Source: a virus
Direction: 5' to 3' (one strand)
Virus record (IMG/VR): IMGVR_UViG_3300034095_001343
Span: 50,930 to 114,929 of that record
Length of the DNA: 64,000 bases
In this document: positions 40,478 through 63,653 of the stretch, in pieces
How the letters are laid out: each line of letters opens with the position of its first letter
Numbering within the stretch: the stretch's first letter is position 1
Program-made: the position numbers and the translations under genes
The notes under the pieces: model-generated
What the model was told of the DNA's origin: nothing
Seen by the model: only the letters and a program-made list of their open reading frames with translations
The model's database searches: none

Positions 40478-41656
40478 TTATATTGAATAAACTAGTTCGC
40501 ATATAGTTCCTTTTGTAAATGACTGAAGTTCAAGAACTGCAGATCTTCTATTTCCTACATATTTATTATGATAATGATAATAATCTGTCTTGCATAAACT
40601 AGGTAAAGTTTTATGAATAAAACCAACTTCTTCGGATGTTGTTATATACTCAACTTTTCTATTTTGATGATAATGACCTGTAAATAAAGTTCTAAACCTT
40701 GTATAACCCCACATCTGAGAAAACTCTGTAGCATAAACAAGCGGTGTACTTTTAGATTTTACATCACCATGTTCAAACGCATTAAAGTTTTCTCCCCATA
40801 TGTAAGCTTTTCTTTCAGAATATTCTACATCCCATTCAACATTATCTGCTTCAATTGATTTTGATAAAGCATGTGCCAAATGAAAAGAAGAAAGTCTATC
40901 ATGATTTCCAGGCATATAGACTACAACTAATTTGTCACAAAAATTAGCTAAATTTGTTACAGCCCAATGCATAGAATCAAACGCTTGAATATAGGCATCC
41001 GTTGCTTTCATTGAGTTTTCAAGCTGTGTTCCAGAAGTTGTAGTTCCTGAAAAAGTATCCATATTTATAAGATCTCCTCCAATAACAAAATACAATACTT
41101 CAATATGATGAGATGAAGATGCTCTTACAATAAGATCTTCTAAAGCTTGTTCAAAATCTATATCAATTGTTTTGTTACCTTCTTTTCCAAAATGAATATC
41201 TTGTAATGACATTATTCCGCAGACAGTAGGTAACTTATTAGTTACATTTAAACTGCTTGTAATATAATTTTTTCTGGGTTTCCAATTCTTAAGAAGCTCT
41301 TTAAAAAGACGTCCTTCATCATTTTCTTTAATCTTTGTAACAAGAGCTGAAACTCTCCAACCATTTTGAACCTGTTTGTTCCAATATGAAGAAAGCTTCC
41401 AATCATTTATATTAATGTTTAAAAGCTTTATAATTTCTTCAGGTGATTTTGGTTCATGATTAATAAAAGTTTCAAACTTTATTTCACCTTTATCAAGATC
41501 AAAATGTTTAGAAGTTTTTTTATTAATACTTTTAGATTTAAGTTTTTTCTTAATGGATTTGTATAAATCTATTGATATACCCAATCTGTTTGCACAATAC
41601 TCAGGACTTTTTTTCCACATTAATGATTGTGAAATACGTTTTTCTAAAACAGTCAT
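40478..41656 (-). CDS. Calcineurin-like metallophosphoesterase with N-terminal HTH-like segment (392 aa)
   Basis: Complete motif set: QDIHFG, GGDL, PGNHD, HGD, TGHYH. Confidence 0.88.
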   Translation of the reverse strand: MTVLEKRISQSLMWKKSPEYCANRLGISIDLYKSIKKKLKSKSINKKTSKHFDLDKGEIKFETFINHEPKSPEEIIKLLNININDWKLSSYWNKQVQNGWRVSALVTKIKENDEGRLFKELLKNWKPRKNYITSSLNVTNKLPTVCGIMSLQDIHFGKEGNKTIDIDFEQALEDLIVRASSSHHIEVLYFVIGGDLINMDTFSGTTTSGTQLENSMKATDAYIQAFDSMHWAVTNLANFCDKLVVVYMPGNHDRLSSFHLAHALSKSIEADNVEWDVEYSERKAYIWGENFNAFEHGDVKSKSTPLVYATEFSQMWGYTRFRTLFTGHYHQNRKVEYITTSEEVGFIHKTLPSLCKTDYYHYHNKYVGNRRSAVLELQSFTKGTICELVYSI

Positions 41657-41700
41657 TTTTATTATTTTAGATTTGTTTGTAAATATAATATATATTTATT

Positions 41701-41730
41701 AAAAAAAAGAGGTCCCATTACTAGGACCTC
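41701..41730 (-). terminator. Rho-independent terminator after fibre genes
   Basis: Minus-strand GAGGUCCUA-GUAA-UGGGACCUC (GNRA loop, one G-U pair) followed by a U8+ tract. Confidence 0.85.
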
Positions 41731-41780
41731 CCCCAACGAGTGTGATAGAAAACCAACAAACTACCACTTTAGTTGCATCT
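41701..41780 (-). ncRNA. Candidate 3'-UTR structured small RNA with UUUGUUGGUUUU seed loop
   Basis: Stem GUGGUAG/CUAUCAC (G-U pair on minus strand only) with a 12-nt loop and outer CAAC/GUUG pairing, then the terminator. Loop is complementary to leaders at 54345-54359, 51031-51038 and 63633-63640. Confidence 0.4.
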
Positions 41781-42344
41781 TTAAAGAAGTGTAGTGATTA
41801 AAATTTCTACACTTTCACATACTAAAACTCCATACGAGGACACAAGTTTAATTTTATATTGAGTTGCAGGAGTAAGATTTGCTAATTGATAAGTTAAAAC
41901 TGTAGGAGCTATAGGAATGGCATTTGCCAGTACCCAACCTGATGGTGATGCTACTGTATCATAATAAACACTAATACCTGTTGTTAAAGAGGATTCATCA
42001 TTCCACAACACCGTTACCTTAGTATTTGTGATATTTGTTGCATATACATTATAAGGAGCATGATGAACATTATCTGCGTTGCAAGCACCAAATCCATTTA
42101 TAACAATTAATGAAAGTTTTTGAAGAATCATATCTAGTCTATCTCCTTCATTAATTTGAAAGATATTAGTTCCATCTACAATTCTAAAACTAGTACCGCA
42201 GTAACTAACACACTCAGCACACTGAATATCATCACATCTTTCACTACCTATGCTACAATCAGTGTAAGAGCATGGTGTATGAAGTGCTGAATCTGCACAA
42301 CCACAAGGTTTATTTGGATTACATTTACTACAATTACAAGACAT
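41781..42344 (-). CDS. Cys-rich protein with C-terminal fibronectin type III-like domain (187 aa), probable fibre/tail component
   Basis: N-terminal CxCxxC cluster. APYNVYATNITNTKVTVLW...NLTPATQYKIKL matches the FN3 pattern. Confidence 0.65.
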   Translation of the reverse strand: MSCNCSKCNPNKPCGCADSALHTPCSYTDCSIGSERCDDIQCAECVSYCGTSFRIVDGTNIFQINEGDRLDMILQKLSLIVINGFGACNADNVHHAPYNVYATNITNTKVTVLWNDESSLTTGISVYYDTVASPSGWVLANAIPIAPTVLTYQLANLTPATQYKIKLVSSYGVLVCESVEILITTLL

Positions 42345-42366
42345 AATTTTTTTTATTTATTTAAAA

Positions 42367-45300
42367 TTAAAAACCGCAATCTCCACATCCTGTTATCAAT
42401 GCTGGTGAAGAAACAGGTGCTGTATAATCTACACTTGAAAAAATTTCTTTTTCAGAAATAATTTCACCACAAGTCAATCCAGCAATAGGATCAGTAAAGC
42501 TCCAAAACTCTCCAATCACAGGTAAAGAACTAGCTAACCAATCAACCCTAATAATAGCACCAGTATTACAATCAAGCATTCTATAACCATCTAAAGTAAG
42601 CAGTGTACTAGGATATGTACCAGTACAATCTTGAATAGCTAATGTAAGTTGATTATTAAATTGTTCATCTTGATTACTACTAATATGAGTATACGTTAAA
42701 GCTTTTTCTATGTTGTTTAAATAAACCAACCAACCATACTGATATAAACCAAAAATTGTATTCCCGCCAGTAGTTACAAAACCACTGTATGGATTTGAAG
42801 CAGATGGAACTAAACCTTGCATTAAGTATCCTGTAACATCAACTACAGTTTCAATACCATATTCAGCAGGAGGAATCATTTCTCCAGTGTATGCAGCTAA
42901 TGCATGCAAAATCATTGCAGCATCTGCACTTGTACTACCTTTAACTGTAAAAGGATTTAATACAGCACTAAATCCATCAGGATATTGATCTACAGTAATA
43001 TTTAATGCTTGAGCCCAAGTACTTGTTTGAGTACCTGTAATTGCATCTATAAAAGCATCATAATCATCTTCATATAGTGAGGATGGTTGACCGGTAAATC
43101 CAGAAGCTAATGTTGTAGCATGATAATCTACAGCAGCTATATTAACAAAATTAATAAGAAAAGCACCATCTTTATACTGTGGCCCAGATCCTGTCCACAA
43201 AGGAGGTAAATTTTGTAAAGCTACCCAAGCTGGATCTGTATCTAATGTTGCACTAGCACCATCATCTACAATAGATTTCTGATAACCTAAATACTTACTA
43301 TCGGCAACAGGAATAAAATATATATCTCCTACATATCCAAATAGTGTATTCCATTCTGCGGCAAGATTAGTTAATCCAACTTGAATTTCTTGACCTTCTG
43401 TAGCACTATAACTTCCTGTATCAATAAAAGCATAAATAGGTTGATTCTCCCATAAAAGAGATACTTCACAAGGAATTATTTGAATTTGAATTGTTGCAGT
43501 AGCCTGTTCACATACACCAAGTACTGAAGGTACAAGAGTTACTCCAAAAGTATCTCCATATTGACCAGGAACAGTATTTGTATAAGTAAACTCATTTGAA
43601 ACAGAACTACTTTGAGTAAGAAGTCCATTAACAGGAATCGCACTAATTGTCATATTAGGAGATCCCTCACCTAACAAATAGGGTACTCTAAAAGTTGTTG
43701 ATCCGCTTTCATTGCAGAATATTTGAATAGTATCTGTTGAAATAAAAGCAGGACAAACACAACATTCTACTACAGAACTTGCTGCAGTTCCTGGAGTAAA
43801 TGTATCCTTCCAACCGGCATAAATATAAACTGTATTTCCGGATCTTATATATTTGCCTACATAATACCATTTGCTGTTAACACCTCCTCCAAATACATTA
43901 TAATTTGTTCCATCACAAGAAAGCACTTGAGTTGCAACTTCAACACCTGTAGGACATGTTCCTGGAATTGAACCATTATCACATTGTGTAACAGATGGAT
44001 TAGCTAAAAGTGTCCAATAGTCTGTTGCAAAATCATATCTATAAATTAAATATTCTGTGCTACCTACAGTACATTGAGTTTTTGCTCTAAAGTAAACAGA
44101 ACCTGATGTTGCACCTGTTGCAATATTTCTTGTACCAGGACCTGCAGTCAAATTAGGACTCCAAGAAATACCATCAAGACTATAGTTTGTTGTAATTGCG
44201 GTACCACCAATTGAGTAATTAAGATCAACCGTAATAACGCCAGATATACTAATACTTAAGTTTGTAGCAAGAGGAGCATCACAAGTAACAGTACCTGAAG
44301 TTCCTACAACAATTTGTTGAGTAATTGGATTGTACCAATAAGGAGTTTTTACATCACCACCAGGTGCCTCATGCCCCAAATAAATATCACTTACTCCATT
44401 TACACTACTAGTGCTAGCAGTAAAATAATTTACACAAGTTGAACCAGGTACAGCTACAGCTATAGGAGTACATGTTCTAACAGAGGCTCCTTGAGAAACT
44501 GTAACAATAATATTATATGTTCTACCAGGTATTGCTCCACCAAATGTATGGGCTACTGTAGTAGAAGGACTTGTTATTGTAGTGCTTCCCAAACTTGCTC
44601 CAGTAGTTGTATCAATTGCAACAATTGTATATGTTACACCTGTTCCTAATGCATTTGTAAAAGTTACATTAATATCAGTAAGAATAGGTGTAGCAGAAAT
44701 AGAAGTTGGACAAGGAATATTTAAAGGAACAATAGTTGTTTGTAAATTAGAGCACTGACTTGTTCCATCGGTAACACAAAATGGTACACTTAAAACTAAT
44801 GATGCAAGTGTGTTTAAACTAGCTACACTTACAGTAACACCAAGAGGATCGTTGGATAATGCTGTTACATTTAAAGATTGTGTTATAGATGAGCCGTTTG
44901 AATCTGTAATAGTAATTATAGTATTTCCACCACAATCATTAAATCCTGATGGAATATTTGAGCTTGTAAAATTCAAATTTAAAGCTTCTACAACACCATC
45001 TCCGTTTGAATCAATTGTTGTATAAGAAACACTAAATATTACACCATCACAACCAACATCGCAACAGTTGTTTTGAATATCGGATACTGCTGCATATAAA
45101 TCACATATTGCAAGCCATTGGTTAACATTACTTTGTGCTAATGTACTTGGAGAATTAACCCAACCGCTAAGAGCAGAATATGTACCTGGACCACTTAATC
45201 TTGGTGTAGTTCCAAAAAGACACTGAGCAGAAATAGCTTGATTAATTAAAGATACTGAACCTACAGCATTTCTAAATTCGCAAAATTGTGATTCAAGTCC

Positions 45301-45891: not shown

Positions 45892-45932
45892 AAATATTTA
45901 TTTTACAAAGTACAAACATCTAGTACATACTA

Positions 45933-45940
45933 TAATATAC
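45933..45940 (-). promoter_or_regulatory. Recurrent promoter-like box GTATATTA
   Basis: Identical octamer preceded by a T-tract in several intergenic regions upstream of minus-strand genes. Confidence 0.5.
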
Positions 45941-46069
45941 AAAAGTTTTTGTAATCAAACAACCAGTTAATTATAAAAAGTTTACAAAATATTCAATATT
46001 AGTTTAATCCTGTATACCGTTAAGTTTTTAACTGATAGTTTTTGTTTGATTTAAAATATAATTAAATTT

Positions 46070-51024: not shown

Positions 51025-51050
51025 AATTATTTGGTTTTTAAATTATAACT

Positions 51051-51071
51051 CAAAAGTACATAATTATGTAC
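51051..51071 (-). promoter_or_regulatory. TAnnTTTG -7 box (TACTTTTG) overlapped by perfect 16-bp palindrome GTACATAATTATGTAC
   Basis: Box at 51051-51058 and palindrome at 51056-51071 read directly. Confidence 0.5.
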
Positions 51072-51087
51072 ATTTTTTATAATCTAA

Positions 51088-51120: not shown

Positions 51121-51336
51121 TTAAACTACCACAGTAATACTGTCTGTTGTTGTGTTAATATATAACTGTCCAACTTTAAGTCCAGCCGCTACTGCAGCTG
51201 CATTATTTACATATGCTCTCTTAGCCAAAGATCCCTCTAAAGCTTCAAGAAATGCCGGCTTTGCAAACAACTTCTCAATAGTAGAGTTTGTAAATTCACT
51301 GACATGTTTGAAAGGTGCTTTTTTATAAATTGACAT
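51121..51336 (-). CDS. Small putative head fibre/decoration protein (71 aa)
   Basis: YVNNAAAVAAGLKVGQLY resembles a motif found at phage fibre tips. Directly after MCP. Confidence 0.5.
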   Translation of the reverse strand: MSIYKKAPFKHVSEFTNSTIEKLFAKPAFLEALEGSLAKRAYVNNAAAVAAGLKVGQLYINTTTDSITVVV

Positions 51337-51364
51337 AATTTTTTTCTTTTATTTAGTTTAAGAT

Positions 51365-51402
51365 AAAAAAAGGGAGGAGGTATGACCAATCCTCCCCTTT
51401 TT
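51365..51402 (-). terminator. Rho-independent terminator after major capsid gene
   Basis: GGGAGGA...UCCUCCC stem followed by a U-tract. Confidence 0.85.
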
Positions 51403-54335: not shown

Positions 54336-54470
54336 ATATTATTTTTTGTTGGTTTCTATATATACAATATAAAAAAATTATTTTACCTAAACCTATTATA
54401 TTTTAATAAACAACTACATTTTATGCAGTATATAGCTATTATAAAAATATTTTACTAGTTCAATCTAAAA

Positions 54471-63628: not shown

Positions 63629-63653
63629 AACTTTGGTTTTATTTATTTATTTA

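Follow-up and report, generated by a model that had tools for sequence, protein, structure and literature searches.

The c4 antisense RNA of the phages P1 and P7 (Rfam C4) exposes loops that pair with short complementary sites over a ribosome binding site in a message of the same phage. RNA and target derive from one transcript, out of which c4 is excised, and c4 controls the antirepressor of a temperate phage (immunity). PreS (LPR1) of phage lambda is a base-pairing sRNA of the lytic cycle which regulates the host gene dnaN in a host that uses Hfq (bioRxiv 10.1101/2024.10.31.621285). In Bacteroides thetaiotaomicron, sRNAs of the FopS/GibS type pair at the 5' ends of messages and block translation initiation (PMC11697453). 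OppZ and CarZ of Vibrio cholerae are derived from operon 3'UTRs and act in post-transcriptional feedback (PMC7398697).

The element analysed here is a hairpin with a conserved loop, which is encoded at the 3' end of the tail operon of an uncultured crAss-like phage. As in the case of c4, a phage-encoded RNA with an exposed loop faces short complementary sites in the phage's own messages. In contrast to c4, the hairpin belongs to a virulent-type phage, would target the leaders of virion genes in other operons, and has no Rfam match. Like OppZ and CarZ, and in line with the features that characterize RNAs of the OppZ/CarZ/CpxQ type, it is located in an operon 3'UTR, shares the terminator of that mRNA and contains a conserved seed complementary to regions near translation starts; post-transcriptional feedback is a further likeness, but for the phage hairpin only a proposed role (PMC7398697). 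It differs in that its targets would belong to other operons, its seed is in a hairpin loop, it is phage-encoded and it has no sequence relationship to OppZ/CarZ. Processing of the hairpin, and a part played in it by RNase E or Hfq, would be hypothetical. The FopS/GibS-type sRNAs come from the phylum that is also the presumed host phylum of the phage, and which does not rely on Shine-Dalgarno pairing. However, they are multicopy host genes with promoters of their own, whereas the hairpin occurs once per genome and lacks a promoter motif; the Rfam model BTnc201 for RNAs of this type scored 14 bits against a cut-off of 105. Unlike PreS (bioRxiv 10.1101/2024.10.31.621285), the hairpin has its conserved complements in the phage's own late-gene leaders. 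A search of the available literature yielded no description of such a hairpin element in crAss-like phages.

The window, i.e. the whole stretch of DNA that was analysed, comprises the right-hand 64 kb of a virus record of 114,929 bp. All genes of the window are on the minus strand. Genes for an amidase lysin, the large terminase, the portal and the major capsid protein were identified, together with a gene coding for a giant protein of 5139 aa; giant proteins of this kind are typical of crAss-like phages. The closest cultured match is Leptolyngbya phage Lbo-JY46, which is only a remote one (26–28% protein identity when exonuclease and capsid protein served as tblastn queries), and a blastn search with the hairpin locus recovered zero cultured relatives. 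The gene leaders are A-rich, a Shine-Dalgarno-like core occurs in 0–7%, and TAnnTTTG boxes are enriched in front of genes (16–19, compared to an expectation of 6–8). These three properties fit a host from the phylum Bacteroidota, which is therefore presumed here. Bacteria of this presumed host group are not known to use Shine-Dalgarno pairing or Hfq. The features of the hairpin locus are, in the direction of transcription:

Positions 45924-45944, minus strand: promoter-like motif TTTTGTATATTATAGTATGTA of the late type, ahead of the 1174-aa gene.
Positions 41781..42344, minus strand: 187-aa gene, an open reading frame with an fn3 domain (Pfam fn3, 24.4 bits, just below the cut-off of 25), final gene of the tail operon.
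Positions 41734-41775, minus strand: two-tier RNA hairpin, deduced from RNAfold and covariation.
Positions 41772-41775 and 41734-41737, minus strand: outer helix, CAAC paired with GUUG.
Positions 41761-41767 and 41742-41748, minus strand: inner 7-bp helix, GUGGUAG paired with CUAUCAC.
Positions 41749-41760, minus strand: loop UUUGUUGGUUUU of 12 nt, the proposed seed region, conserved and predicted to be unpaired.
Positions 41701 to about 41733-41734, minus strand: intrinsic terminator, a GC-rich hairpin with a GUAA loop, followed by U8.
Positions 41679-41692, minus strand: promoter-like box TATATTATATTTAC of the exonuclease gene, past the terminator.
Positions 40478..41656, minus strand: 392-aa DNA repair exonuclease gene (phrog_704, E = 5e-45), the downstream neighbour of the hairpin.

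The hairpin begins 6 nt past the stop codon of the 187-aa gene, and the terminator is directly next to it; the distance from the stop codon to the U-tract is 81 nt. The sequences that an initial annotation had given for hairpin, loop and terminator were all located at these positions, and its fold was reproduced by RNAfold. The predicted energy of the hairpin-terminator structure is -30.6 kcal/mol (z = -3.2), and the predicted unpaired probability of the loop bases is at least 0.91. The terminator stem consists of 13 pairs and is followed by U8, as is characteristic of Rho-independent termination. The loop-bearing hairpin itself is not the terminator, and the downstream hairpin was the sole terminator-like site in a scan of positions 41400-42500. 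The stem of this genome contains one G-U pair, which would give A-C on the opposite strand.

Relatives of the locus were represented by 115 IMG/VR loci, which were anchored on the 187-aa protein and the exonuclease. The hairpin is located immediately 3' of the 187-aa stop codon in 35/35 anchored relatives. It precedes the exonuclease gene, as the exact motif or a variant, in most of the 80 exonuclease-anchored loci; the few loci missed by the strict pattern have variant loops. Conservation was assessed with a set of 65 distinct hairpin sequences, whose flanking protein is 48–88% identical. The loop columns UUGUU, G and U are invariant in this set and the remaining columns are at least 90% conserved. 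In the inner helix, 92.5% of the cells are paired compared to 31–72% in slid controls, and the observed score was not reached by shuffles. Both sides have changed at six of the seven inner-helix pairs, and the same helix was predicted by RNAalifold. G-U pairs are frequent in it across the relatives, and it is therefore sense-strand RNA that has this structure. As for the outer helix, 63 of the 65 sequences can form one with 4 bp or more, compared to 37.7 in the shuffled control; in some lineages it is swapped for GCGAG/CUUGC, GCAAA/UUUGC or ACGA/UCGU. The sequence of the terminator varies freely among relatives, with hairpin and U-tract being constant. A near-invariant loop on covarying stems, which the initial annotation had proposed to look for in relatives, is present in the 65 sequences and in the RNAalifold prediction. 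The comparative data confirm the hairpin as a genuine, conserved RNA element of the minus strand.

A covariance model detected one copy per genome in six complete genomes with 50–69 bits. The next-best score was 21.6, and no additional hairpin copies were found in these genomes. A scan of IMG/VR with an exact 14-mer was less selective, as 8/80 of the matches listed were true hairpins and the others mostly chance. Searching the whole window with Rfam 15 gave no family at the gathering score. In E-value mode, the sub-threshold matches DUF3800-I (25.8 versus 44.2) and nse_sRNA (23.4 versus 75) were obtained; they are driven by the terminator and were rejected as an identity of the hairpin. The hairpin would be a new RNA family with a known mode of working in a new setting. 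Hairpins recognized by proteins are likewise marked by a loop that does not vary and a stem that covaries, and the element always adjoins an intrinsic terminator at a module boundary. Both properties would suit a cis element of the tail mRNA that binds a protein or is linked to termination, e.g. a site for a phage RNA-binding protein, an antiterminator or a stability factor; the leader complementarity described below would then be incidental. A model for such an element is the nut/boxB region of phage lambda, where a hairpin with a conserved loop, situated before terminators, brings an N-like protein to RNA polymerase.

The 200 nt upstream of the hairpin were inspected for a promoter in 72 distinct relatives. 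The late-type motif was found in 0/72 and the TAnnTTTG motif in 1/72 cases; as a control for the pattern, the late motif was detected before 36/50 scaffold genes. A stand-alone sRNA gene with its own promoter was therefore rejected. The absence of a recognizable motif argues for a 3'UTR element of the tail-operon message, from which a discrete sRNA would have to be processed. The mRNA that ends in the hairpin probably starts at the motif at positions 45924-45944, whose class also occurs before the scaffold, 486-aa and 184-aa genes. The hairpin may act either as a processed 3'UTR fragment or within the long tail mRNA. A late-type, promoter-like motif, TTTTnTATATTnTATATGTA, recurs at positions 54356-54374 and 45924-45944 and also precedes the 486-aa, 184-aa and 629-aa genes; in many cases AAGTTTA is found some 17 nt before it. 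The motif is similar to the tripartite middle/late motif reported for the crAss-like phage phi14:2 (bioRxiv 10.1101/2020.03.07.982082).

Complements of the loop are found in the leaders of three genes of the window:

Positions 54345-54359, minus strand: primary target site AUAGAAACCAACAAA, -10 to -24 of the ATG of the 424-aa (scaffold-position) gene.
Positions 51031-51038, minus strand: second target site AAAACCAA, -7 to -14 of the 338-aa head-module gene.
Positions 63633-63640, minus strand: candidate third site AAAACCAA, -5 to -12 of the 101-aa gene heading the lysin-terminase-portal block.

As had been supposed, all three genes follow promoter-like sites, namely either the late-type box TATATTGTATAT or the TAnnTTTG-type boxes TACTTTTG and TACATTTG. 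The 424-aa gene heads an operon with the major capsid gene. PHROG, Pfam and PDB sequence searches with the 424-aa and 338-aa proteins gave no match at threshold, and "scaffold" is therefore a positional label only.

The loop complement AAACCAAC precedes the scaffold-capsid ATG in every relative examined, and AAACCAA(C/U) occurs 8–25 nt upstream of the ATG in 47/47 distinct leaders among those listed. In these 47 leaders the tag is not at a fixed distance from the conserved late-type promoter, with differences of up to about 25 nt; it therefore tracks the start codon and not the promoter. The base after ACCAA is C in 33, U in 5 and A in 3 of 41 parsed leaders, and all three leaders with A carry a second CCAAC copy upstream. 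That C-to-U is tolerated and A avoided, although leaders are 50% A, fits a G-U wobble and thus an RNA duplex. The scaffold tag is predicted to be unpaired. Furthermore, duplexes of the loop with the start regions of 55 orthogroups, each common to at least five of six genomes, were ranked. The scaffold orthogroup is the sole outlier with a mean of -12.9 kcal/mol; the next group reaches -9.1 kcal/mol, as does the best reversed-loop control. In this genome alone, the scaffold site is third of 126 after accessibility correction, which counts against trans pairing; the single-genome accessibility ranking is noisy and the comparative ranking was used instead. The complementarity to the scaffold leader, noticed initially in this one genome, thus lies where it had been placed, distinguishes one orthogroup out of 55 and is accompanied by co-evolution.

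Several relatives illustrate how loop and scaffold leader have changed together. In L113, the loop UUAUAUUGGUUUU and the scaffold leader AAAACCAAUAUAA pair perfectly over 13 nt; compared to the standard sequences UUUGUUGGUUUU and AAAACCAACAAA, two positions are changed on both sides. In L016 (loop UGUUUGGUUUUU, scaffold leader AAAAACCAAAUA), a G-to-U change of the loop is matched by a C-to-A change of the leader. In L039, the loop contains GGUUUC opposite GAAACC in the scaffold leader. A leader C was never found in the lineage with a loop A at the matching position. Acceptance of G-U, but of neither A-C nor G-A, is the expectation for an RNA duplex. For 28 distinct loop-leader pairs, the energy is -11.1 kcal/mol for cognate and -10.2 kcal/mol for non-cognate combinations (permutation p ~0.0005, relatedness ignored; in the co-evolution statistics, phylogeny is accounted for only in part).

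The match in the 338-aa leader, likewise part of the initial annotation, is at the position listed, and AAAACCAA occurs at -9 to -14 of this gene in 51/53 distinct relatives with varying flanks. The duplex of 8 bp is weak, with a predicted energy of about -7.8 kcal/mol. Its usual partner is the 3' half of the loop, UUGGUUUU. In some genomes the U-run of the loop is shortened (GGUUCUC, GGUUACC, GGUUUC, GGUAUAU, GGUUUCA), and the 338-aa leader switches along with it: CCAAC(A) is found in 5/6 shortened-loop genomes compared to 0/28 with an intact loop (Fisher p = 2e-5). The switched leader pairs with the 5' half of the loop. In L057, for example, it restores the predicted energy to -11.3 kcal/mol, compared to -5.4 kcal/mol. 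A maximum-likelihood tree of the 338-aa proteins places shortened loops in at least 4–5 separate lineages, and the leader switch occurred in 4/5. Lineages that lack compensation are L105, which has a shortened loop, and L252 and L262, which have other loop variants. L400, L422 and L381 also have CCAAC-type 338-aa leaders; the stretch examined contains neither a hairpin nor an exonuclease gene in these three contigs. Taken together, the evidence that the loop pairs with the scaffold-capsid and 338-aa leaders is strong on comparative grounds, and what is new here is this co-evolution of the loop with both leaders.

These observations bear on two readings without RNA-RNA pairing. A cis element of the tail mRNA, as outlined above, is quite improbable, as it accounts neither for an exact complement being conserved before two start codons nor for the leader changes that, in several independent lineages, correspond to changes of the loop; a nut/boxB-like antitermination model likewise leaves the conserved, co-evolving leader complement unexplained. 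The other reading starts from the fact that, as double-stranded DNA, the leader tag is the loop sequence turned round. They could represent a shared double-stranded DNA site, AAAACCAAC, bound in either orientation by one DNA-binding protein, and a drift in its specificity would also be expected to change both in parallel. However, next to the terminator this sequence is enclosed by a helix that covaries, is rich in G-U pairs and is sensible only in the minus-strand RNA. Moreover, the position of the leader site is tied to the ATG and not to the promoter, the target tolerates C-to-U but not C-to-A, and the 338-aa leader compensates via the other half of the loop and not by copying the changed letters. 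A shared DNA site is for these reasons highly improbable.

Weaker candidate targets were also considered. The motif in the 101-aa leader is located where the initial annotation had seen it. However, it is kept in only 4/6 genomes, and its duplex energy of -7.4 kcal/mol is no better than that of the reversed-loop control, which makes this leader a weak target at best. More generally, the 8-bp, A/U-rich cores of -7.4 to -7.8 kcal/mol lie inside the range of the reversed-loop controls, which counts against trans pairing. On the scale of whole genomes, the predicted enrichment of the tag in leaders was observed in all six related genomes: AAACCAA occurs in 4–11 leaders (-25 to -1) per genome compared to 0.5–1.4 after shuffling (P <= 0.0025 each). 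It ranks first or second among words of the same composition, and the 8-mer ranks first of 56 same-composition permutations. Two sites are outside the window, in the left arm of the genome. AAAAACCAAA is located at -11 of a 169-aa gene (G000:C1:5360-5869, plus strand), whose orthologues have the motif in 3/6 genomes; this leader is possibly another weak target. AAAAACCAACAGAA is located inside a coding start, at +10 to +23 of the gene G000:C1:36105-36953 (plus strand), and its duplex with the loop (-9.7 kcal/mol) is among the best accessibility-corrected ones in this genome.

Two further observations concern the region upstream of the 338-aa gene. A perfect palindrome, TGTACATAATTATGTACA (positions 51055-51072, minus strand), overlaps the TACTTTTG box of the 338-aa promoter and is conserved with small changes in most relatives (L347-L426); it looks like a putative operator for a dimeric DNA-binding protein. 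An open reading frame of about 70 codons (positions 51121-51336, minus strand) precedes this promoter and lies between the terminator of the capsid gene (about 51360-51395) and a second hairpin, GCCGGGAAACCGGC.

With moderate confidence, we favour the following mechanism. The RNA would be the 3' end of the tail-operon message, which comprises the 1174-aa and 187-aa genes. Its two-tier hairpin would display a single-stranded loop of 12 nt, with the terminator of the operon directly next to it, and the loop would pair in trans with other late messages, whose 5' leaders carry the tag AAAACCAA(C). The first target would be the operon of the scaffold-position gene and the major capsid gene (11–15 bp), the second the 338-aa head-module gene (8–9 bp), and a few more are possible. 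These leaders are A-rich and unstructured and lack a Shine-Dalgarno sequence, and the tag is situated 5–25 nt upstream of the start codon. Pairing there would most likely occlude the landing site of the ribosome, and the synthesis of head proteins would be damped or timed relative to the expression of the tail genes. The phage-made RNA thus probably tunes the translation of two head genes.

Production and stability of the RNA, its action in trans and the sign of its effect are inferred, with repression being favoured. A duplex 5–25 nt before the ATG is within the ribosome landing zone, which argues for repression or tuning. For the target motifs, the predicted unpaired probability is 0.67–0.99, and their start regions do not differ in openness from the average gene of the genome; consequently there is no inhibitory structure that pairing could relieve. 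The preference for repression also leans on the precedents of translation-blocking sRNAs in Bacteroides (PMC11697453) and of feedback sRNAs derived from 3'UTRs (PMC7398697). What counts against it is that the regulator and its main target appear to share one promoter class.

The pairing might also be real and its outcome positive or different, i.e. activation or stabilization of the tagged messages (for example by protection of their 5' ends), an adaptor function, or a bridge between mRNAs by which the synthesis of tails and heads is coupled. All evidence for pairing applies equally to these possibilities. The shared promoter class suits coordination better than shut-off, and the position of the scaffold site at the predicted 5' end of the message in this window would suit activation or stabilization. 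Nevertheless, we consider a positive outcome unlikely: the openness of the leaders and of the motif leaves an activator without a structure to open, and in many relatives the site is 20–25 nt away from the 5' end. No feature that would contact the ribosome was found. The 16S rRNAs of 22 Bacteroidota operons, which served as stand-ins for the host, do not have TTGGTTT as a conserved sequence, and pairing of the tag with 16S rRNA was rejected. The tag was also rejected as a general leader element of the host: in two Flavobacteriaceae genomes used as stand-ins, AAACCAA occurs in 2/164 leaders of Polaribacter and in 7/507 of Flagellimonas (rank 4 of 21 permutations). Among rRNA sequences, the loop letters are matched only by AUUGGUUUUGG, which is located in a variable region of the 23S rRNA of four Flavobacteriaceae loci (L548, L554, L580, L619), is absent from the other operons of the set of 22 and is probably irrelevant. 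A more far-reaching version, in which AAAACCAA tag and hairpin RNA form a phage-private channel of translation control, as a positive adaptor or mRNA-mRNA coupler in a host without Shine-Dalgarno recognition, is very doubtful; if true, it would mark chosen virion messages for ribosomes, or tie the output of head proteins stoichiometrically to the abundance of the tail message. Of the riboregulator proposed in the initial annotation, the conserved loop and the enrichment of the tag have thus been borne out and the pairing with the scaffold and 338-aa leaders is further supported by co-evolution, whereas the 101-aa target is weak and the initiation adaptor gained no support.

With repression by trans pairing as the preferred reading, the hairpin would be a family-wide riboregulator of a virulent phage, aimed at its own capsid-assembly genes, in uncultured crAss-like phages. 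Phages of this group are among the most abundant known viruses, and their post-transcriptional gene regulation is, to our knowledge, essentially unexplored. Exact loop-leader pairs, including natural compensatory variants, are now available for testing, and a 58-nt model would allow the element to be annotated in metagenomes at large. Should the effect be verified, the hairpin would provide a simple handle on the balance between head and tail production in these phages.
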